From Lama guanicoe (taxonomy: Eukaryota): a DNA stretch of 64,000 nucleotides. The notes under the pieces were generated by a model. It was not told the DNA's origin. It was given only the letters and a program-made list of their open reading frames with translations, and searched no databases. Each line of letters opens with the position of its first letter. Position 1 is the stretch's first letter. The DNA lies in NCBI GenBank assembly GCA_013239625.1, contig MU053802.1, positions 200,905 through 264,904 on the forward strand. The letters run 5' to 3'. Of this stretch, positions 1-63,629 are shown piece by piece. The position numbers were made by a program, and so were the translations under genes.

Positions 1-2191
1 TTAATTTTGTAACCTGCTACCTTGCTGAATTCTTCAATCAGCTCTAGTAGCTTTTGTGTGGACCTTTTAGGGTTTTCTATATATAGTAACATGTCATCAG
101 CATATAATGACACTTTTACCTCTTCTTTTCCAATTCGGATCCCTTTTATTTCTTTCTCTTGCCTGACTGCTGTGGCTAGGATTTCTAGGACTATTTTGAA
201 TAGGAGTGGTGATAGTGGGCATCCTTGTCTTGTCCCAGATTTTAGTGGGAAGCTTTTGAGTTTTTCACCGTTGGGTACTATGCTGGCTGTAGGTTTGTCA
301 TATATAGCTTTTATTATGTTGAGATATGTTCCCTCTATACCCACTTTGGTGAGAGTTTTTATCATAAATGGNNNNNNNNNNNNNNNNNNNNNNNNNNNNN
401 NNNNNNNNNNNNNNNNNNNNNNNNNNNNNNNNNNNNNNNNNNNNNNNNNNNNNNNNNNNNNNNNNNNNNNNNNNNNNNNNNNNNNNNNNNNNNNNNNNNN
501 NNNNNNNNNNNNNNNNNNNNNNNNNNNNNNNNNNNNNNNNNNNNNNNNNNNNNNNNNNNNNNNNNNNNNNNNNNNNNNNNNNGTTCATCAGTGATATTGG
601 CCTATAATTCTCTTTTTTTGTAGTGTCTTTGCCTGGTTTTGGTATCAGGGTGTTGGTGGCTTCATAGAATGGGTTTGAGAGTATTCCCTCCTTTTCAATC
701 TTCTGGAAGAGTTTGAGAAGGACTGGTATGAGTTCTCCTTTGTATGTTTGGTAGAATTCTCTGGTGAAGGCATCCGGTCCTGGACTTTTATTTGTAGGGA
801 GGTTTTTAATTGCTATTTCTATTTCCTTTCTAGTGATCAGATTGTTCAAGTGTTCAGTTTCTTCTTGATTCAGTTTTGGTGGACAGTATGTTTCCAGAAA
901 CTTGTCCATCTCCTCTAGGATATCCAGTTTGGTTCCATATAGTTTTTCATAATATTCTCATATGATATTCTGTATTTCTATTTTGTTTGTTGTAATTTCT
1001 CCATTTTCCTTATTTTGCTAATTTGTGCTCTCTCTTTTTTCTTCTTTGTGGGTTTGGCCAGAGAGTTGTCGATTTTATTTACTTTTTCAAAAAAGCAGCT
1101 TTTGGTTTTGTTGATTTTGATTTTTTCTATGGTCTTGTTAATCTCTATTGTATTTAATTCCTCTCTGATCTTTATTATTTCCTTCCTTCTGCTGCTTTTT
1201 GGGGCTTTTTGTTCTTCTTTTTCTAATTGATTCAGGTGGTGGGTTAACTTGTTTATTTGAGATTGTTCTTCTTTTTTGAGGAAGGCCTGTATCGCTATAA
1301 ACTTCCCTCTTAGCACTGCCTTTGCTGTGTCCCATAGGTTTTGAGTGGTTGTGCTTTCATTATCATTTGTCTCAAGGTATTTTTTAATTTCAGCTTTGAT
1401 TTCCTCATTGATCCATTGTTTTTTCAATAACATATTGTTTAATCTCCATGCTTTCCTTTTTTTCTCCTTTGTTTCTCTGTTGTTGATTTCCAGTTTCATG
1501 GCATTGTGGTCAGTAAAGATGCTTGAGATAATTTCTATCTTCTTAAATTTGTTGAGGTTTCTTTTGTGTCCAAGTACATGATCGATCCTGGAAAATGTTC
1601 CATGTGCACTTGAAAAGAATGTATATTCTATTTTTTGGGGGTGTAAAGCTCTGAAAATATCCACCAAATCTAGTTTTTCTATTGTAGTATTTAATTTCTC
1701 TGTTGCCTTGTTTATTTTCTGTCTGGAAGATCTGTCTAGTGATGTTAATGCAGTGTTAAAATCTCCAACTATGATTGTATTCCCATCAATATCCCCCTTT
1801 ATCTCTGTTAGTAATTCTTGTATGTACTTAGGTGCTCCTATATTGGGTGCATATATATTAACGAGTGTAATATCTTCATCTTGTATCACTCCTTTAATCA
1901 TTATAAAATGTCCTTCTTTATCTTTCTTTATGGCCTTTGTTTTAAAGTCTATTTTGTCTGAAATCAGTACTGCAACACCTGCTTTTTTGGCTTTTCCATT
2001 TGCATGGAATATCCTTTTCCATCCTTTCACTCTCAATCTATATGTGTCCTTCTCCCAAAGCAGGTCTCTTGTATGCAGCATATTGAAGGTTCTTGCTTTA
2101 GTATCCAGTCTGCCACTCTATGTCTTTTGACTAGAGAATTTAGTCCATTAACATTTACAGTAATTAATGATAGATGTGTGTTTATTGCCAT
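1..2191 (-). pseudogene. L1 ORF2p (APE endonuclease and start of the RT region), frameshifted
   Basis: ATG GCA ATA AAC at 2191, then ...TVNVNGLN. ORF track fragments show [33 protein letters not shown] and [10 protein letters not shown]. These are split across several frames, and the segment contains N-gap 372-582. Confidence 0.95.
372..582. other. Assembly gap (N run)
   Basis: Run of N inside L1 ORF2. Confidence 1.
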
Positions 2192-2603
2192 TTTGAACTT
2201 ATCTTTGCAGTTGAATTGGTATATCCTCTTTGTTCCTTTCTTCTTCCTTTTGTGGTTTGGTAATTTTCCTTTGTATTATCATGGATTTTATTTAATTTTT
2301 GTGACTCCCTTGTAAATTTTTGACTTGTGGTTACCCTTTTTTGTAAATCTATTAACCCATTACTATAACTGTTTTCATTAAACTGATAGTAACATGATCT
2401 CAAACCCATCCTACTGTTAAAAAATATTTTAAAAAGAAAGAAAATAATATTCTATATTTCCCTGCCTCCCTCTCCCACTCTCAGTGATTTGTATGTCTTC
2501 TTTCTTCTTTTATAATTTTGTGTTTTCTTTATTTGTAATTTATGAGTTATCACCTTTCCAGTTGTGAGTTTCTCATTTCTGTAGCATCCTGCTGCTTTTC
2601 TAT

Positions 2604-3507
2604 TTAGAATAGCCCTTTCAATATTTCTTTTAACATGGGCTTAGTGTTGCTAAATTCTTGCAGCTTTTTTTTTTGTCTGTGAAACTCTTTATTTGTCCTT
2701 CTGTCCTAAAGGATAGCCTTGCTGGATATAGTATCCCAGACTGCATCTTTTTTCAATCAGGTCTTTGAATATATCTTGCCACTCCCTTCTGGCCTGTAGT
2801 GTTTGTGTAGAGAAATCAGCTGAGAGCCTTATGGGGGTTCCCTTGTAACTTACTCTTTGCTTTTCTCTTGCTGCCTTTAGAATCATTTCTTTATCCTTGA
2901 CTCTGGCCATCTTGATTATGATATGTCTTGGTGTGGGTCTATTTGGGTTCTTCCTGTTTGGGACCCTCTGAGCTTCCTGTGCTTGGATATCTGATTCCTT
3001 CTGTAAGTTTGGGGAGTTTTCACTCATGATTTCTTCAAAAACCTTTTCAATCCCCTTTGATCCTTCTTCCCTTTCTGGGACCCCTATTATGGGAAGATTG
3101 GGACATTTTATATTATCCCATAAGTCCCTTATGGTATTTTCATTAATTTTTATTTGCTTATCTTGTAGTTCTTCTGAATGGGTCCTTTCTATTGCCCTGT
3201 CTTCTAGATCACTAATTCGTTCCTCTGCATTAACTAGTCGGCTTTGCACAGCTATTAGATCATTCCTCATCTCTGTCAATGAGTTTACCCATTCTGCTTG
3301 GCTCTTCTTTATAGCTTCAATTTCATTTTTGACATATTTTATATCTCTAAACAGTATCTTTTTTAATTCCTTCAGCAATTTGATCACTCCTTTTTTGAAA
3401 TCTTGATCTAGTAGGCTATCGATGTCTATTTCATTGATCTTTCTTTCAGGGGATTCCTCTTGTTCTTTTAATTTGGAAAGGTGTCTCTGCTTCTTCATCT
3501 TGCTCAT
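2604..3507 (-). pseudogene. L1 ORF1p (RNA-binding chaperone), frameshifted near the C-terminus
   Basis: ORF 2689..3507 contains RISDLED, DLWDNIK, IIGVPE, PTPRHIIIKM, ILKAAREK, YKGTPIRLSADFS and ARREW. It shifts frame before the expected LYPARLSF motif. The native-frame stop follows ...LKEILKGLF at 2604-2606. Confidence 0.92.
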
Positions 3508-6073
3508 ACCTCTCTGGCACTGTGGTTTATGGAGTATCAGTTGTCTATTTTGGATCTTAAGATTTTTATCTATCTAATGCCTATTTACGAATAGAACTTA
3601 GGGAAAAAAAGAAAAAATAGAGAGAGAGAAAGAATTTTAAAACAAGGGAGAAAGCGGGTTTGAAAACAGTATATAATGAATAATGGAAGAGCTAGTTGAA
3701 GCAGAGTATTAATCGGGTTGAGACGTCCTTTAAAACCTTAAAAAAAAAGTGGGGGGGAGATGAATAGATGTATTTGAAGCCTGTGTCCAATCAATAACAG
3801 GACATCAAAACCCAAGAGAAATAGAAATGGATTAAGAAGTAAAAATTAAGAGAGTAATAGAAAATAGAACAGGTAAAAACAGGTTTAAAAAAAAAGGGGG
3901 GGTTGTCGGTGTTCTCCTGGAGTCTGTGTGCTTTTAATGTGAAGTCTTTCTGTCTTCGTCCTGTTTTGGAAGCTCAGCTTTTTGTTTTCCGAGGCCGTCC
4001 ATTGGCGCCCTGTTCTGTGCTGCTCCCAGCACCTGTAGGGAAGCAGATTGCGCCTCCTCCTAACACGGGGTCAGGTGCAGCTCTCCTGTGCTGCTGGTGG
4101 GAGGGTCACTGCCCCTCCGGATGCCGCAGTCAGATGTTGCAGACTGGCCAGGCAGGAGGGCGGGTCGTGCCCCCTCCCAGCACCTCGGTCAGGGGCTGTG
4201 TTCCTGCCTGAATGGCGGGGGGCCACTCTCCCTCTGCCTGCGCTGCCGGTAGCTCCGCTGCTTTGTGCGGCTGCGCGCTCTGCCAGCGCGCCGCCCTGGT
4301 TGGCGCGCCACCCTGTTTGGCACTCCGCCTTGGTCGCGCTCCGCGGGTGGGCTCAGGGAAGATGGAGGGACAGCCTTGTCCCTGCTCGGAGCCAAAACCC
4401 AGTTCCTCGTTTTTCTTTGTGGAGCAAGTTCTCTGAGGGACCAGGATGGAAGGATCCTATCTGCCTCTGGCTGTAGGCCCGTCTCAGTCTGGTCTTTGAG
4501 GCTGCTAAGCCCTTCGGTGTGGACGCAGGTTTCACCCCCGCCCCCGCCTGGGTGCTCAGCACCAGACAATATGGCGACTGTGACTTGGCCCGCCTCTCTT
4601 CCCCGAAAAGTTTCCGCGGGTTTTCAGAGATGGGGGTAAGCACCCTTCCCCCAAGAGCACATCAACCTTGCTGTTTTATGGAGGGCCCAGGTTGTTCTGC
4701 CCTGTGCACCCACAGCCACAGCGCCCAGCCCCTTGCAGTCCCACAGGGCTGCTTCCGTGCAGCCTCCCTTGTCCTCTGCCCGGCTTGTGCAGCCTGGCCC
4801 TGCCCGCCGCTGCTGGCCCGCGTCTCAGGCTGGGTGTCGGGGGGATGCTCTGTGCCCGTTTAACTTAGTTCTGTCAGACAAGGCTGCTCTGCACAGATCC
4901 GAGCCTCGGAGGCTCCCCCTCCATCCCGCTGGTCTCTCAGTTGGAAAAAGGAGACCCAGCAAGCGAGCACCAGTCCTCCTTTGCTGCTCCCTCCCCGCGT
5001 GACCCGTCCCGCGCTGCTTTGCCTTTTGTTCATTGTTTTTTCCTTTTCTCCACCAGATTTTTGGCATTTTAATCTTTTGAAGAGGGTGATGTTCTGTCGG
5101 AGTTCCGCAGGTGCTCTGGTTGGCTGAGTGGGTCTGTAGATGTATGTGGGTCTTGGTGTATTTGTGGGAGAGGGTGACTTACGAGCGTCCTTCTACTCTG
5201 CCATCTTCTCCGTCTCCCGGGTTACAAGTTCTTTATCACCTACAAAATCCCACAAAGATAGTAGTTTATATTGTTTTAAGGGAATTGAAAATATACACAT
5301 TTTTATTGTTGTTCATCTTCCAGTTGATAAGCACACATTTCCTGTATCATCAAAAGAGAAGTGACAGTATTTACAGTCTGCCTCCTATTTGTTACCTGCC
5401 TTTCAGAAACTTGCCCTTTGGGACTCAGGGTCCTACTTGACAAGCCACAACCTTGTATACTTTAGTGTGAACCCATTCAGTACTCCTTTCAAGATTAAGT
5501 TCTAAGGAATAGCTTTGTAAAGGACAGGTTAGATCTTAATAGAGCTTCAAGTATAAATCAATAAGGAGAAAAATATTGGAGTAAAAAGTAACCAGGCACT
5601 TCTGACTGGTTGTGTTCTCCAGCAATTTCTAACAAAAGAAAAAAGCCAGACTCCAAAGGGATATTCAGTAGTACAACCCTCTCCTCTCTGTATTAAAGCT
5701 GAGATACACCAGACCTTATTTTGTAAACTCTTTCTCTCTTTCTAGGTAATCCGTCAATAACTGGACCAAAGGTTGATGAATCAGATGTCATCACCCATAA
5801 TGAACTGTCAACTTCCTAGTTATTTTCTGAGTTTATTCAACCAACTCACTTTTTTTCTGCTTGCAATTGAGTGTTAATTTGCTCAACTAAAGTGTTTTAT
5901 ACTATATGTCAATGAGCAAATATTACATTTTTGTTAATCAATTAGCTAGCCCTCTCCTGTACCCTACAAAGAAAGTTTCCTCAACTGATACCAATAATCC
6001 CAGTAAACTTAATATAACTACCAATAATTAAATGTATGGAAATAAATTTTAAACATTAGAATCTATGTAAAAC

Positions 6074-15707: not shown

Positions 15708-16190
15708 TTTTTTTTTTAAGGGCTCAGCTTTCTATTGGATGTGTTCCTACAGAAATTTAGTCAAAAAGACCAAAGCCCATGTCGTGATCAGACTCCTTGG
15801 ACTCTTCTTTCTCGCTTCCACTTTCTTCTCGGCAGCAGCGGCGGCGGCGGCGGCGGTGGGCCCACCGGCCTCCACGTTGCATATGAGGCTCCCGATGCTG
15901 ACGTTGGCCAGAGCCTTTGCAAACAAGCCCGGCCTGAAAGGCTCGAAGTTCACTCCAGCTGCTTTAATGAGGGGGTTGATCTTGTGCTCCGTGACAGTCA
16001 CTTCTTCATCGTGCACGATGAGGGCCAGCAGATGCAGGCGAGCTCGGAGACCGAGGCCATGGCGCGGGAGAGCCACAGGCGGGCGCTGCCGGGCGCGGTG
16101 CTAGTCGCTGGATGAAGTGAGGGCCTCACCCCAACGCAGCCTTAGTTCCCTCGGAAGAACCGAGCACCTTGGCGGCAGCTGAGGAAAGAG
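15708..16190 (-). pseudogene. RPLP1: Processed pseudogene of 60S acidic ribosomal protein P1
   Basis: Intronless, with a 5'TOP-like start CTCTTTCCTCAGCTGCC. ATG at 16060 (MASVSELACI), then LIVHDEEVTVTEHKINPLIKAAGVNFEPFRPGLFAKALANV and terminal DMGFGLFD* (stop 15757-15759). PolyA remnant at 15708-15717. It carries two frameshifts and a shortened Ala/Gly hinge. Confidence 0.96.
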
Positions 16191-23286: not shown

Positions 23287-23489
23287 NNNNNNNNNNNNNN
23301 NNNNNNNNNNNNNNNNNNNNNNNNNNNNNNNNNNNNNNNNNNNNNNNNNNNNNNNNNNNNNNNNNNNNNNNNNNNNNNNNNNNNNNNNNNNNNNNNNNNN
23401 NNNNNNNNNNNNNNNNNNNNNNNNNNNNNNNNNNNNNNNNNNNNNNNNNNNNNNNNNNNNNNNNNNNNNNNNNNNNNNNNNNNNNNNNN
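23287..23489. other. Assembly gap (N run)
   Basis: Run of N, entered through a TG repeat. Confidence 1.
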
Positions 23490-48673: not shown

Positions 48674-48986
48674 CAGTCCACTGTCCATATCTAGAGGCCC
48701 GCTATCCAGCAGATTGAACGAACTGTGGATGGAAAATATACAGAAAAAAATGGAAAGTTTCAAAAAGCAATACTTGAATTGGCCACAGGCTGGCAACTAC
48801 TTACATACTATTCACGTTGCCTCGATACTGTGAGTAATCTAGAGAGGATTTAAAGTACACGGGTGGGAGCACGTAAGATCCGTGCAAGTCTTCTGAAATT
48901 TTATAAAAGAGGTGTCAGAATCCAAGGATGTTGGCATCAGGGGGAAGTCCTGGAACCAGTGGCCTAAGGTTACCAAGGGATGACTG
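48674..48986. mobile_element. TcMar-Tigger MITE (MER2/Tigger3-like), copy 1
   Basis: (TA)CAGTC... and ...GGGATGACTG termini, with internal AAAAAGCAATACTTGAATT, GTAATCTAGAGAGGATTTAAAGTA and TCCTGGAACCA. Confidence 0.75.
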
Positions 48987-49194
48987 GAAGCTCAGGCTCC
49001 TGATCCTAGCCTGGCACGTACCAATGTGCTCTGAATACTGCCTGTACCACAATGCCCTGGTGACTCTCCTCCAGCCCTGCCAGAATGCCCTCTTCTTCTG
49101 GAAGAGACCAAGCTCACTGCACTTCATGTCTGACCTCTAGAAATACCTATTATATTCTGAGCATGGCTCTCCTTCAATAAGAAGGGATGCATTG

Positions 49195-49840
49195 CCACTA
49201 CAGAAGACAGGATGGAGGTTCCTTAAAAAACTAAAAATGCACTTAACATATGATCCAGCCTTCCCACGCCTGGGGATAGGACAGGAGAAAACTCTAATTC
49301 AAGAAGTCACATGCACCTCAATGCTCACAGCAGCCCTATTTATAATAGCCCAGATGTGGAACCAACCCAAACGCCGATCGGCTGGTGACTGGATAAAAAA
49401 GTAGTGGTCTACTTATGCCATGGAATACTACTCAGCCATGAAAAAGGATAAAAGAATGCCATTTGCGGCCACATGGATGAACACAGAGATAGTCATCCTG
49501 AGTGAACTAAGCCAGAAGAAAGAAAAATGTCATATGATACCACTACCATGCGGAATCAAAAAACAGACAGAAATGAACTTAACAACAAAAGAACAACAGA
49601 CCCACAGACATAGAGAAACAAACTTATGGTTACCAGGGAGAGAAGGGGGTGGGAAGGGGAAAATATGGGAATTGGAAAATGGCCCCTCTTGGGGAGTGAT
49701 GGAAATGGTAGCTATCTTGATGGTGGTGATGGTTTTCTGGGTGTAGACATCTATGAAATTTCATCAAATACTACACGTGAGATGTGTCTAATATACGGAA
49801 CAGAAATTGTACCACAATAAAAGTGTTATAAAAAAAAAAG
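49195..49840 (+). mobile_element. L1 3' fragment, copy 1 of duplicated module
   Basis: Encodes WRFLKKLK...YDPA...CTSMLTAALFIIA...MEYYSAMKK, with AATAAA and polyA. Near-TSD AAGAAGGGATGCATTG / AAGATGGGCTGCATTG. Confidence 0.88.
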
Positions 49841-51345
49841 ATGGGCTGCATTGTGTCCTATGTTTCTATGTGTCTTCAGGGAGGCCTCAAGAGGGCAGTG
49901 CTGGCCTTCCTGCCAACATGATGATATGAAGCCCGAACAATCCATCGATGGGGAGAAGGTAAGAGCCATGGTCACATCTGGACCCCAAGCTTAGACATGG
50001 TGATTGGGTGACATTTATAGACAATCCCGCGAGGTTCCGGCCAGAGCTAGAGGCCGGAACAGCAAACTGGCAGTGGCACTAAGGAGCATGGTGGCGCAGA
50101 GGCTGGACTGGGGGCCCGCAGGCTCCTCCCAGGAGGAGCCTCAGTGTTTGGGAGGTGGCTAACGTGCCTGCTTCATGTCACCAGCAAGTGATGCCACCTG
50201 TGGAAAATCAGCTGGACTCCTGAGCCGGGTCAGCCCTGGGAGATGCGGTAAAGGCTCCTAGCAGAGGGGGTGCCAGACGGACAGTGAACCAAGCAACAGG
50301 CTTCTGAGTTTGGGGCCTGTGTTTATCGTGCTTTCCGTGTCTCACTGCATCTCAGTGTCACCCGGAGGAATTGGGGCTGTGTTTAGAGGCTGATGGCCTC
50401 TGGATTCCTCATTAGCCTGGTAAGGCCCCCAGCCCTCTCAGGCCAGACCTTGGCAAGCGCCTTCCCTTGTTCTAACAAAAGCCTTCCCACCCTTGCCTGT
50501 GGTGAGCTTTTGTTTTCTTAATTGATGGGAAGGAATATACCTTACAGCCTCCTCAAGCCCTTCCTTAGGGCTTCTGCCCTTAGGCCCCGGCAAGGGGGCC
50601 AAACCACCACCCCCCGCTGCCCTGGGCCCTGCAATACAGAAGGTCCCCCTGGCCCTGACACTCCCTCAGGCCATGCCCTCCACGGGGTGGAGTCAGCAGG
50701 GCCAAGGGGACACGCCCATTGGCTCCACCCCATGCTCCAGACACCCAGGACCCTGAATACCCTGCCCCAGCAGCCCCTTACCCACCTCTAGTGTCTGCAC
50801 CTGCCCTCCCCAGAGTTCAGCTTCCCAGGACTCACACAGAGGCCAACGGGCAGCTGTTGGCATGGAGGGTATGGATAAAGCCCGGATGTGAGTTCTGAGT
50901 GTCCCCCTGTGCACATCCAAGGCCCCTTGGGGCATGGGATGGACCCAGCATTGGGAAGAAAAGGTCCAGGCTAGTGGTCAGAGACTGGGAATCGGCTCTC
51001 CCCACACTGTCGCTTTCTTTGCGGGACTCCCTTGAGTCTGGGAATTCTAAAGCTGAGCCTGGCCTTCCCCCTTATAATGAATGTGTGTTTGTAAAGCCAG
51101 GAGTGTAGAACCTACTGCACTTAAAATGTTGACATATATAGGATGGGAATTCCCAGGAATTCTCTGGCCCTGCACTTCCAAAGGTTCAGAGCAGTTATGT
51201 TGGCTCTGCTGAGACTGCAAGAGGCAAAGACCATCTCCAGAGGGGAGGGGCTACTGCTTCATGCTCCGAAGTCAGGAGCTTCTGAGCGGATGAAACAATG
51301 GACACTGAGACCCTCGATTGTAAGTTGGTTTAGAATGACGCAAAG

Positions 51346-53555: not shown

Positions 53556-54935
53556 TTCTCCGTATCTAGCGGCTCCCTATCCAACAGATTCATCTAAGTG
53601 TGAATTTAAAATATTCGGGAAAAAACAGAAAGTTTTAAAAAGCAACCCTTGAATTTACCATACCCTGGCAACTACTTTCATAGCATTGATGTTGTATTGG
53701 ATACCGTGAGTAATCTAGATATGATTTGAAGTACACAGGAGGTCACAGCGAAAGAGAATATGACAACGAATGTATGTGTATGTTCGTGTATAACTGAAAA
53801 ATTGTGCTGTACACTGGAATTTAATGCAACATTGTAAAATGTCTATAACTCGATAAAAAAATTTTGTATATATATATATGTATATATATATATAAAACTA
53901 CATGGGATTGTGCATATGAGTTCCATGCAAGTCCTATGACATTTTGCACAAAAGGCGTCAGGATCCATGGATGTTGACGTCTGGGGGAATTCCTGGAACC
54001 AGTGTCCCGTGGTTACAAATGGATGCCTGGAAGTCCAGGCTCCTTATCCCAGTCTGTCATTTACCCATGTGGTCTGAATCCTGCCTCTACCTCAGTCTCC
54101 CTGTCACTCTCCTCCAGCCCTGCCAGACTGCCCTCTGATTCTTGAACAGGCCTCACTCACTGAGCTTCATGTCTGGCCCCTAGAAATACCCGTTACTTTC
54201 TGAGCATGGCTCTGCTTTAATAAAGCGGGCTGCACTGTGACTTGAGAACACAGTGTAGTGATTCCTTTAAAACTGAAAATGGACATAACTCATGATCCAG
54301 CCTTCCCACTCCCAGGCATATGTCAGGAGAAAACTCTAATTCAAAAAGTCACATGCACCTCAATGTTCACAGCAGCACTATTTATAAAAGCCAGGACATG
54401 GCAGCAACTGAAATGTCCATCGACAAGTGACTGGATAAAGAAGTAGTAGTATATTTAGACAAAGGAATCCTACTCAGCCATTAAAAAGAACAAAATAATG
54501 CCATTTGCAGCAACATGGATGGACATAGAGATAGTCATTCTAAGTGAAGAAAGCCAGAAAAAGAGAAAAATGTCATATGATATCACTTATATGTGAAATC
54601 TAAAATAAGACACAAATGAACTTAACTACGAAAGAGAAACAGACCCATAGACATAGAGAAACAAATTTTCGGTTACCAGGGAGAGAAGGGGATGAGAAGG
54701 GATAAAGATGGGAATTCGAAAAGTGCCCCTCTTGGGGAGTGATGGAAATGTTAGCTATCTTGATGGTGGTGATGATTTTCTGGATGTAGACATCAATCAA
54801 ATTCATCAAATAGTAAATGTGAAATATGTGTAATTTACTGTACAGGAATCATACCACAATAAAGGTGCCTGTAAAAAAAAAAAAGAAAAGATTGGCGACA
54901 TTGTGTCCTACGTTTTTATGTGTCTTCAGTGAGTG
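53556..54935 (+). repeat. Second copy of the Tigger-MITE + unique spacer + L1 3' module, paralogous to 48680-49885
   Basis: Same order and shared non-repeat spacers (CTCTCCTCCAGCCCTGCCAGA, CTTCATGTCTG..CTAGAAATACC, CTGAGCATGGCTCT, CATTGTGTCCTA.GTTT.TATGTGTCTTCAG). An extra L1 3' end with (TA)n is inserted at ~53742-53895. Confidence 0.9.
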
Positions 54936-60100: not shown

Positions 60101-61233
60101 TGAGACCAGGCACCCACTTTTCCAACTGTACAGCGTCCATTCATCCACATGAACCAGAACGAATGGACCCCCTCCCCTCTCCATCAATATTAGTGTTGCT
60201 TTAATTCCGACTGTTTCAACCAGTGCTGTGATGATCACCCTTGAAAAGGCATCTTTGAATAGGTGTGTAAGGATTTTAGTGGGATGAACTGTAAGGATCA
60301 GAACTTCTGGGGAAGAGATGCATCTGTGGCCCTTTGATGCGTCCTGCACCCTGTTCTCCTGAAGAGGAGCGTCCCTTCACTCTTCCCTCCAGGGGATCTG
60401 CTGGAGCCTCTGTCTGCTTACATTGTCACCAGGGCTGGTTGTCACCTGACTGAAGACCCGCTAGTGTGATGGTGACCGGTGCTGTCTCTGCAGTGTTTCC
60501 TTCTGCCTGTGTTCTCACCTGAGAGGTCAAGCATCTCCAACACACACTGGCCACCTGCATTGCCTCTCATTGGAACTGCCCATGCCTGTTGTGTTTCTGT
60601 TTAGAACACTGGGTTTTGAAAGGATTTTGGACTACAGGGATGGGAAATCTTTCTCCAACCTCGGGTTATGAGGAATGCATTTTCCAGGTTGTGGTTTGAT
60701 TTTCAAGCAGTTTTTCTGGGCTTTTGTTAATTTTTTTGAATTGTTTTGTTTTGTTTTTGCCACAGGAAGGGCGAAACATCTCCCTTGTGTCTTCTGGCTG
60801 TGGTGTCACGGGGGGAACAGCAGTGTCTACCCTGAGATTATGCACAGAGTTACTAAAAGGGCTTCATTTTGTGCATCACATCTTTAATCCTCCTGGATAT
60901 CCCCTTAAAAAAATAATAAATTGCTGTTTCAAGTGAAAACAAAAAAAAATCATCAGCTCCAGCTTAAAACATGTGGGCAGGGACAAAAAAAAAAAGCTTT
61001 TTTAAAGTTTCATTGAAAGGGAACAGCCAGGAGAGGTAAAGACACACAGAGAGAAAGAGGACTTTGGGTTGTCAGGGGCTGGGTGAGGAGGGAGGGGAGT
61101 GCGGTCTTTGGATCCAAGGTTTCACTTTGAAGAAAGAAATAGTGTGAAACTAGATGGTAGTGATGGTCGCACAACATTGTGAATGGCCCTAATGCTCCTG
61201 AATTGCACAATTTAAAAGGGGAAAAGCCTATAT

Positions 61234-62848
61234 TTTATTAATGAAACTCTAAAAAGAAAAATAAAGGATACCATAAATGATGTGAAACAAACAAAGGAAA
61301 CTAAAGAAAACCAAACAAAAACATCTCCAGCGGAAGGGACATCACGTTTGGGAGGGAGAGGGGGAGGACTGATGGTGGGATTTTGAACATTTTGCAGAAG
61401 AAGGTGTGGGTGGGCGCAGAGGGGGCTCTGCCCCAGGTGGTGGTGATGCCTGAACTGGTTCTCCGTTGCCCAGCAGTCCAGCTGCAGATACAGGTTCAGG
61501 AGGAGCTGCAGGAGCGGCAGGAGGGAGCTCGGGGTCTCCTGCTGGATCAAGATCGTCCTTTTTTTGGTCTCTGACATCTTCCCCTGCCCCTGCCTCCTCT
61601 GTAACTATTGGATGTGGAGAGAGTTTTAAGTCTTGTGGAAGAGCTCATGCTGTGAGAGAGGAAAAATTTACCCACCTGCCTCCCTTTCCATGTGCCTCTT
61701 CAAGCACAGAAACCTTCCCAGAGCTTTCCAGACAGCTCCCACCCAGAAAGTGCCCACAGGATGTGTTCTGTGACTGAATTTTTCCAGACAGGTGGTCTGA
61801 GGCCATTCTTTGCTCTCGTTCCAACATTAGCCTCTGGGGACACTTCCCTGTGTGACCCAGCCCTCACCCCTCCCTCACCTGCACACATGCACCAGCCCTG
61901 CCTTTCTGACCTTCGGGCTCTGCTTCAGGGGCTCCTGGTCCTCCACCTGACTTGCAGCGAGGTGGGCACAGTGCTGCAGGTCAGAGCCGAGTGTGCTGAG
62001 CTACCCGTCAGCCCCAGGCAGGTCCCTGGGAAAGCCCTGGGTGAGGTCTGGGTCGGAGACCTACCCCACTGATTTCTGGGCCATGGTGGTGGGGACCCCT
62101 CCATATCCAGACCCACCTGGAGCCTGCGCTGGACTTAAGAGTGGCACACCAGCCCTTCACTTGGGGAGGGGGCGTTGGTGTTCTTATTCATCAGCTTCTG
62201 TTCAATATGTGGTATCTGGCTCTGCAATGACAGTGACCAGCAGCTGACCCGGCCTGGAAGTCTCAGAGCCCTGCCTGGCCAGGAACACTCCTGATTCTGT
62301 CCAATCGACCCTCTGCTGCCAGATCAGACCGGTACCTTGTTCAGCTCAGACACCCGAGAGGGAAAAGACATACCCAGAGTGCATGGGCTCCACCTCGGGC
62401 AGCAGGACCCTTCCCTGGCTCTCCACATCCCAGCCAGCCAGCTTTGACCTGGGCTGTGGATGTGACCGGCCCCCCAGGCCTCTGACATGCACTTGCTTGA
62501 GGCAGAAATCCATCCCCAACATGACTTCCCCACCTCCACCAGCCAGGAAGGGGCCGTGGGGCTACCTGGGTGGGATATGAGTGGTGGCCCGGCCTGAGCG
62601 GGCCTGCCCTGGGCCTCCCTGTGTTACCTTTGGGTCTCTCTGGCCAAAAGGCCAGAGGCGCCTTGGGTGAGACCTGACCCAGTGCCAGCAGCGTTGGTAC
62701 AGCCCCTCGCTGCGGGCTTTCCGGGGACTTCAGCCTCGGGATTTTGGGATGCAGCAGAACATGCCTCTGTCTCCAACCAGGTGAGCTGAGTAGGGACTTC
62801 TCTACAGAGCGGGTGCTTGGTGACTTCGGTTCCAAGTTCTGTTGGGCT
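61234..62848 (-). pseudogene. Truncated RALGDS-derived (RalGDS-like family) multi-exon gene with in-frame stops
   Basis: Exon 62628-62762 reads MFCCIPKSRG*SPRKARSEGLYQRCWHWVRSHPRRLWPFGQRDPK|gtaaca. Exon 62117-62221 reads SQIPHIEQKLMNK...S*VQRRLQ. Segment ~61911-62015 reads GSDLQHCAHLAASQVEDQEP/EAEPE (RalGDS PGSDLERRAHLLLAQLEHSEPIEAEPE). The last exon 61342-61649 is Pro/Ala-rich, and minus-strand AATAAA lies at 61234-61239. Confidence 0.75.
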
Positions 62849-63629
62849 CTGTTGCCAGGGAAGTGAGGTCACTTCCTGGGGTCCACTTATCCAAGCTTCC
62901 TCCTGACACAAAGCTCCCCATGGGCCTTTCTGGGCTGCTGATCTCTCATTTCTCACTCCATGTCATGTCCACACAGAGTGACACAAACTCAGCCCCCCCC
63001 ATAGTCCTTGGGAGGCCTGGATGCAGCCAGCACCACAGCTCTGAAGACACAGCTGTGTTCAGACCTGGCTGCCCTCACTCAGCAGTGCCATCATCATGAA
63101 CAAGCCTCGTGCCTCTCAGGTTCTCCCCAATCCCCAATCGGCACAGTGGGGATCATTCTGGCCCCTGTTTCCTAGAGAAGCCATCCTGTCTCTAGACCTA
63201 GAAACATCTACTGCATCTGTCACCCCCATGGGCTGGCATCACAGGGAGCTCGTGCACAGACTCAGCAAAGGAAGGACCCCACAGAGGGCTGGCCAGGGTC
63301 TGCCATGAGTTCTGAAGAAAGTCACTTTCCTTGCTGCTTGCTTCCCAGCTCCCTGTCCTGAGACTGAAATTAAATACAACTTTGACATCGTCCGCTCTTG
63401 CATACAGCCTCCAAGGTCATTCTGTCATGTTGATGTACAGGCCCAATGTCCCATCTCGGACTCTGTGGTGGGCTGCCCCACAATGTCTTCCTATGCTTTG
63501 CCTTCTGTTCCCATGCCCTTGTGGGATCCCCACATCCTCCCCTGGAGGGTGGATGGACTTTGAGACCAGGTTATGACATGCAGGCTGACTTGTGAAAATG
63601 TGAGTTCCACTCCTTCCCAGCTCCAGTGT

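Follow-up and report, generated by a model that had tools for sequence, protein, structure and literature searches.

Several annotated mammalian proteins share parts with the sequence described here. In primates, RGL4 (Ral-GDS-related protein) opens with an Arg-rich first exon starting MF(S/P)CC, and the same exon is found in the rabbit RalGDS-like protein XP_051695423.1. These RGL4-type proteins keep the RasGEF domain (PF00617). RALGDS, represented here by siamang isoforms (P0160-P0165), lacks the MFCC exon. In equids, a REM-only family annotated as 'RalGDS-like' (the P0053 cluster, 63 members) carries the same first exon, has been amplified and has no CDC25 domain. This equid family retains a complete REM domain (PF00618) and lacks the hydrophobic tail. 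Human CDRT15 is a protein of 188 aa that is predicted to be at the plasma membrane and is called 'hardly studied' (PMC10403009). Acylation of Cys3 and Cys4 in a short N-terminal motif has been linked to membrane anchoring in GAP-43 (PMC2994833).

The nearest relatives of the present locus are found in camelids. In the alpaca (Vicugna pacos), a family of 'uncharacterized' proteins, named in UniRef 'Skin secretory protein xP2-like', includes XP_072816817.1, XP_072796879.1 and XP_072821441.1, and Camelus ferus has XP_032326716.1. The xP2-like label probably reflects only Ala/Pro/Glu repeats. The alpaca family is colinear over its full length with a remnant on the minus strand of a 64-kb stretch of the guanaco (Lama guanicoe) genome, called the window below, to which all coordinates refer. 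The two have the same exon 1, read-through exon 2, last exon and tail. Unlike the alpaca family, the window copy carries three stops, four frameshifts and a shorter Pro/Ala-rich linker. This remnant is a pseudogene of a multicopy, RALGDS-derived camelid family without a GEF domain.

The family differs from each of the other systems. It has no RasGEF domain, which RGL4-type proteins keep. It shares with RALGDS the REM tail and, via a family profile, exon 2, and lacks the REM core, the CDC25 domain and the RA domain. It differs from the equid family in the extent of REM and in the tail. A colobus CDRT15-like protein (P0146) has the first exon in common with the window (E 9e-08; E 2.6e-11) and, like the window family, has no GEF domain, a Pro/Glu-rich body and a hydrophobic helix. 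GAP-43 is alike in its Cys3/Cys4 N-terminal motif, and the resemblance is one of motif only. The truncated architecture is already annotated in many mammals, with primate CDRT15-like as a named relative that lacks the GEF domain. Among the papers covered by title and abstract opening, a set with few subscription papers, none describes the family or a link between CDRT15 and RGL4, and those found for RGL4/Rgr included nothing relevant.

A decayed copy of a camelid gene family

The remnant runs from an ATG at 62762 to the AATAAA (Table 1). Alpaca protein P0006 aligns with the window end to end, with 162 of 246 residues identical, in a frameshift-aware alignment that takes the exons as 62762-62628, 62221-61911 and 61604 onward. 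Relative to P0006, the window copy carries stops at 62732-62730 (TGA), 62137 (TAA) and 62003 (TAG) and frameshifts near 62035, 61928, 61368 and 61307. The set of lesions was identical when P0004 or P0020 was used as the reference. An earlier reading of this DNA, made from sequence only, had spoken of a gene derived from an ancestor of about 200 aa. The seven inactivating lesions do not fit the first term, and the three exons total 799 bases, or about 265 codons. The window copy would yield no protein because the frame closes at codon 11.

Table 1. Features of the pseudogene and its upstream region, in window coordinates
Feature	Position	Strand	Remarks
Conserved upstream stretch	62763..62960	-	Leaders of over-extended gene models align, E down to 5e-10
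Inverted ETS-like pair around a one-mismatch CRE-like core	62859-62876	-	About 100 bases before the ATG; motif chosen after looking
Candidate UTR exon of the earlier reading	63079..63171	-	Unsupported
Coding exon 1	62628..62762	-	MFCC, Arg/Trp-rich, 45 codons, RGL4/Rgr type; TGA at codon 11 (62732-62730)
Coding exon 2, alpaca-type	61911..62221	-	RALGDS exon-2-like part 62221-62117, then former intron, then REM tail
REM-domain tail	61929..62033	-	Sole part with direct significant RALGDS similarity
Last coding exon	61249..61604	-	Acidic stretch, Pro/Ala-rich linker, frameshifts near 61368 and 61307
T-rich tail stretch	61246..61326	-	60% T; hydrophobic C-terminal helix in intact relatives; out of frame here
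Polyadenylation signal AATAAA	61234..61239	-	About 10 bases past the end of the hydrophobic-tail frame

The Cys/Arg-rich MFCC N-terminus noted earlier was recovered. The ATG opens an exon with 11 Arg/Lys in the window copy; the 3' boundary of this exon is the GT donor at 62628. When this exon was used as a query (X for the stop), all five candidates matched at E ~1e-15, more than expected by chance. The five are alpaca RefSeq models named 'uncharacterized', of 267-321 aa and 76-80% identity. Exon 1 was also matched by horse P0053 and by the macaque RGL4-type protein P0113 (0 of 1000 shuffles as high for each), and did not match RALGDS (937 of 1000 shuffles as high). On these comparisons, the MFCC exon is the first exon of RGL4/Rgr-type genes and does not come from RALGDS. 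Two TGA stops had been proposed to result from deamination of CGA codons. This is plausible for codon 11, where 19 of the 20 alpaca proteins have Arg. The second TGA (61647) is intronic in the alpaca models.

Intact paralogues, previously only suspected, exist in the alpaca, where 20 different RefSeq proteins of 227-381 aa are free of stops and come from contigs of seven different lengths. Some of them are isoforms of one gene, so the figure is not a gene count. Near-identical alpaca copies show 81-89% identity to P0004, with highly variable C-termini, and the Camelus ferus model P0030 is also related. A tree was built from 84 columns and 28 rows, the window plus 27 of 167 proteins hand-picked for lineage spread; P0029, a repeat-driven false match, was excluded from this tree and from the alignments. 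The window was placed as sister to all four alpaca rows (93/90, just below the starred threshold; recovered in 96% of bootstrap trees), with a long terminal branch of 0.4. The camelid, ruminant, bat, equid and primate sequences each formed a group of their own, and the tree did not resolve the deep branches. The description as a member of a fast-evolving multicopy family was borne out, with stop-free paralogues in a camelid. It is very likely that the locus is a decayed, intron-containing duplicate from this camelid family, the stop-free members of which likely encode a non-catalytic protein predicted to be located at membranes.

A retroposed copy was ruled out, as introns are present. No second copy of the family was found elsewhere within the 64-kb window. 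The frameshift near 61928 is common to the window and its relative P0027. Similarity between these two is alike in translated intron (65/80 matching) and exon (29/34), as expected without selection on the protein. Part of 61200-63200 is contained in 20 of the 24 sequencing runs listed, with a best share of 0.51. Among the listed runs, the five recorded as RNA have shares of 0.09-0.18 and one guessed to be RNA has 0.23, figures that are not evidence of expression.

Exon structure and relation to RALGDS

Exon 2 is bounded by an AG acceptor at 62221 and, after the REM tail, a GT donor at 61911. It contains the TAA and TAG stops as well as the frameshifts near 62035 and 61928. The REM-tail sequence lies at about 62050-61911 and is similar to RALGDS (0 of 1000 shuffles as high). 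A profile of camelid and ruminant sequences, plus four further proteins, matched RALGDS residues 211-248 with 24.5 bits (0 of 500 shuffles). The claim that only the tail of the REM exon is kept was upheld, with the REM core deleted. The deletion was seen by alignment, and Pfam gave no family, PF00618 included, for P0004, P0006 and P0020. The first part of exon 2 had likewise been called RalGDS-like. Compared directly with RALGDS, this part scores no better than chance (707 of 1000 shuffles as high), and the relation stands through the family profile only (20.5 bits, 0 of 500 shuffles); this profile has equid rows, and the link is transitive.

A coding structure in four parts had been proposed for the locus. 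In every one of the 20 alpaca models the coding sequence is divided into three exons, the proposed second intron is read through, and the last-exon acceptor is of the 61604 type and not of the 61649 type. In the window, the acceptor at 61649 is immediately followed by the TGA at 61647. The acceptor implied for the third of the four parts (62003-62001) corresponds to a Gln codon of the RALGDS REM tail and is a TAG stop here. Homology to the last REM exon of RALGDS begins about 17 residues before this position. Since the homology starts upstream of the implied acceptor, a deletion has fused intron 2 with the interior of the REM exon, so that exon 2 reads through. Among the proteins examined, 9 of 13 from ruminants and 17 of 24 from bats show the read-through as well. 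Splicing into four exons is seen in deer (3 of the 13 ruminant models), where the old donor is joined to a later acceptor in the REM tail (counterpart CAG 61973). Ruminant models use both last-exon acceptors, including the counterpart of 61649. A four-exon isoform is thus possible in the family, with an acceptor different from the one proposed.

The Pro-rich part of the last exon is not significantly similar to RALGDS (622 of 1000 shuffles as high). It had been read as ending at a stop at 61344-61342. This TGA follows a +1 frameshift, and intact relatives continue into a hydrophobic tail. The original frame ran into this tail as well, ending near 61251. The polyadenylation signal was correctly located, with a single AATAAA at 61239-61234. 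A C-terminal hydrophobic helix was found in 8 of 20 alpaca, 6 of 12 ruminant and none of 16 GEF-bearing proteins; several bat and xenarthran proteins have it too. The second membrane anchor that such a helix suggests may be a by-product of the T-rich 3' end, because 12 of 20 alpaca proteins are without it and each of the three frames of the tail DNA reads as hydrophobic.

Absence of the CDC25 domain was confirmed, as no RasGEF or REM match was obtained from Pfam in the last-exon frame of the window or in alpaca P0004 and P0006. The RALGDS catalytic region gave no match to the window at the threshold used (tblastn). RasGEF (PF00617) and RA (PF00788) are both absent from the window family. The stop-free members cannot be GEFs.

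Relatives across mammals and competing explanations

A profile of 18 N-termini matched 79 proteins among 8000 scored candidates. The pattern M-x(1,2)-CC was present in 61 of the 79, a count that is partly circular, since MF(S)CC starts went into the making of the profile. The hits that bear RasGEF are primate Ral-GDS-related proteins, and those with REM only are equid and lemming forms. Hits without either domain came from alpaca, cattle, buffalo, sheep, deer, reindeer, bats, armadillo and tamandua, and two further hits are named CDRT15-like. In rabbit P0033 and primate RGL4-type proteins, the MFCC exon is followed by a RasGEF domain. It stands before a body with REM only in horse and lemming, and before a Pro-rich body without GEF domain in ruminants, bats and xenarthrans. 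The automatic names given to the family include xP2-like, fibrous sheath CABYR-binding protein-like, PTPN23-like, GPI-anchored protein 58 and CDRT15-like. All intact members are gene predictions, and their sequence is for the most part of low complexity. Pfam found no family in the window last exon or in the GEF-less members tested from alpaca, cattle, deer, bat, armadillo and colobus. No usable match for P0006 was obtained in the ESM Atlas. A metagenome scan with the family alignment gave 294 pattern matches, none of which was confirmed.

Some models have unusual architectures. In Molossus molossus P0036 and P0082, the MF(S)CC exon and exon 2 are modelled before a PACS N-terminal C2 domain (PF25332), a fusion for which exon shuffling and a model artefact are both possible. 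Molossus nigricans P0022, P0024 and P0094 and Leopardus geoffroyi P0159 consist of numerous tandem copies of exons 1 and 2 or of units that contain REM. These models suggest that the family forms tandem arrays in mammals other than camelids.

How the family arose can be sketched from these comparisons. It very likely descends from an RGL4/Rgr-type paralogue of RALGDS with the MF(S)CC first exon ahead of RALGDS exons. An internal deletion, as the alignment shows, took most of REM, so that exon 2 reads past its old donor into the REM tail. The gene ends before the CDC25 region, at the T-rich stretch and polyadenylation signal. The product is predicted to be a disordered chain rich in Pro, Ala and Glu. 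It would be held at the membrane by S-acylation of the Cys pair together with an amphipathic Arg/Trp segment, and some copies would have the C-terminal hydrophobic helix as a second anchor. Palmitoylation of Cys3/Cys4 is a reasonable prediction. Copies appear to have spread by genomic duplication and often died, in keeping with their introns, their presence on several contigs and their lineage-specific clades. Germ-line expression is a guess based on the pattern of lineage-specific amplification.

Alternatively, the whole family may be passenger sequence in duplicated blocks, with stop-free copies that are merely young and no selected protein function. The near identity of the alpaca copies, their very variable C-termini and the lack of any Pfam or Atlas match would agree with this, as would a tail that is hydrophobic in any frame and ruminant last exons that are partly read in a different frame from alpaca. 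Set against it, the exon-1 motif and the exon-2 read-through have stayed open in camelids (20 of 20), ruminants and bats in the proportions given above, and alpaca and deer share a tail motif in the same frame. Over such evolutionary distances, this retention is hard to obtain without selection, and we regard passenger status as rather doubtful.

A second alternative concerns the N-terminus, which could be a mitochondrial or nucleolar targeting sequence and not an acylated anchor. An Arg-rich, acid-poor and amphipathic profile fits presequences. The first 45 residues of family members contain 9-14 Arg/Lys and 1-2 Asp/Glu, and an amphipathic 11-mer has a moment of 0.66-0.99. Targeting peptides have no need of a conserved Cys pair at positions 3-5, where Cys3 is shared by 90% or more of 18 sequences in an alignment, and targeting of this kind is unlikely.

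An ancestor of about 200 aa with four exons, ending at the TGA at 61344, is very unlikely. The exon-2 donor at 62117 is strong (5.6, on a rough matrix), and the deer models splice a donor of this type to the REM tail while several ruminant models use the upstream last-exon acceptor. Against three alpaca proteins, the four-exon form scored below the three-exon form (503 vs 596, 528 vs 631 and 466 vs 580), in a comparison that favours the proteins' own junctions. The terminal stop lies after a frameshift, and none of the 20 alpaca models is a stop-free copy with these junctions. Continued activity of the window copy, through a non-coding transcript or small RNAs, is highly improbable, given that exon and intron have diverged similarly from P0027, even with splice sites, polyadenylation signal and conserved upstream stretch still recognisable.

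The decayed-duplicate reading can be extended to placentals in general. P0146 aligns into intron 1 of the window, where alpaca models instead splice at the exon-1 donor, and it has no REM-tail match. This points to an origin of P0146 by read-through of the first donor, which would be a separate truncation; the comparison with CDRT15 is one with the colobus protein. An RGL4-type gene may have been cut repeatedly to a membrane-targeting first exon and a disordered spacer, by intron-1 read-through in primates, retention of REM only in equids and intron-2 read-through in camelids, ruminants and bats. Several lineages would be capped by the T-rich tail, which encodes a hydrophobic helix whichever frame is read. 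The products would be selected as doubly anchored tethers or decoys in germ cells or early embryos and amplified separately in each lineage, with CDRT15 as a human relative that has gone unrecognised. This extension is speculative and, taken as a whole, rather unlikely. On its own, one dead copy such as this is of little consequence. It does draw attention to a family that is spread across mammals, has been amplified repeatedly and stands under many unrelated names in public annotation. If intact members are made and selected, a signalling gene would have been recycled for its targeting exon, and CDRT15 would gain an origin.

Upstream sequence and other features of the window

About 200 bases before the ATG are conserved. 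The leaders that align there belong to bats, cattle, buffalo and other records, and the stretch is likely the proximal promoter and 5' leader by this conservation. The ETS/CRE-like pattern within it was picked after being seen; its chance figure is no test, and the pattern is a lead only. The leaders of three relatives read D-V-T-S at the CRE-like site, as an intact CRE core would allow. The CG core, conserved according to PMC3464117, is absent from the palindrome of the window. Further upstream, the candidate UTR exon put forward by the sequence-only reading did not hold up. Its donor has a score of -0.2 on a rough matrix, against a 95th percentile of 3.0 for GT sites nearby, its acceptor has 9 of 20 pyrimidines, and the leaders of relatives match it at chance level (E 0.03-0.05).

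Other features were observed in the window. Two N runs (372-582 and 23287-23489, 414 bases in total) lie far from the pseudogene. The 5' half of a LINE-1 element occupies 298-5200 on the minus strand, with long open frames for ORF1 (2689-3573, PF02994) and the ORF2 endonuclease (978-2117, PF03372). The GC-rich segment at 4001-5000 is likely its 5' UTR. A 60S acidic ribosomal protein gene, which we take to be of the RPLP1 type, is present without introns at 15747-16100 on the minus strand (PF00428, E 2.7e-13) and is likely a retrocopy. A direct duplication of about 1 kb joins 48852-49883 and 53895-54933 at 81% identity, with a further match of 184 bases just upstream. By eye, this duplication includes sequence like the 3' end of L1.
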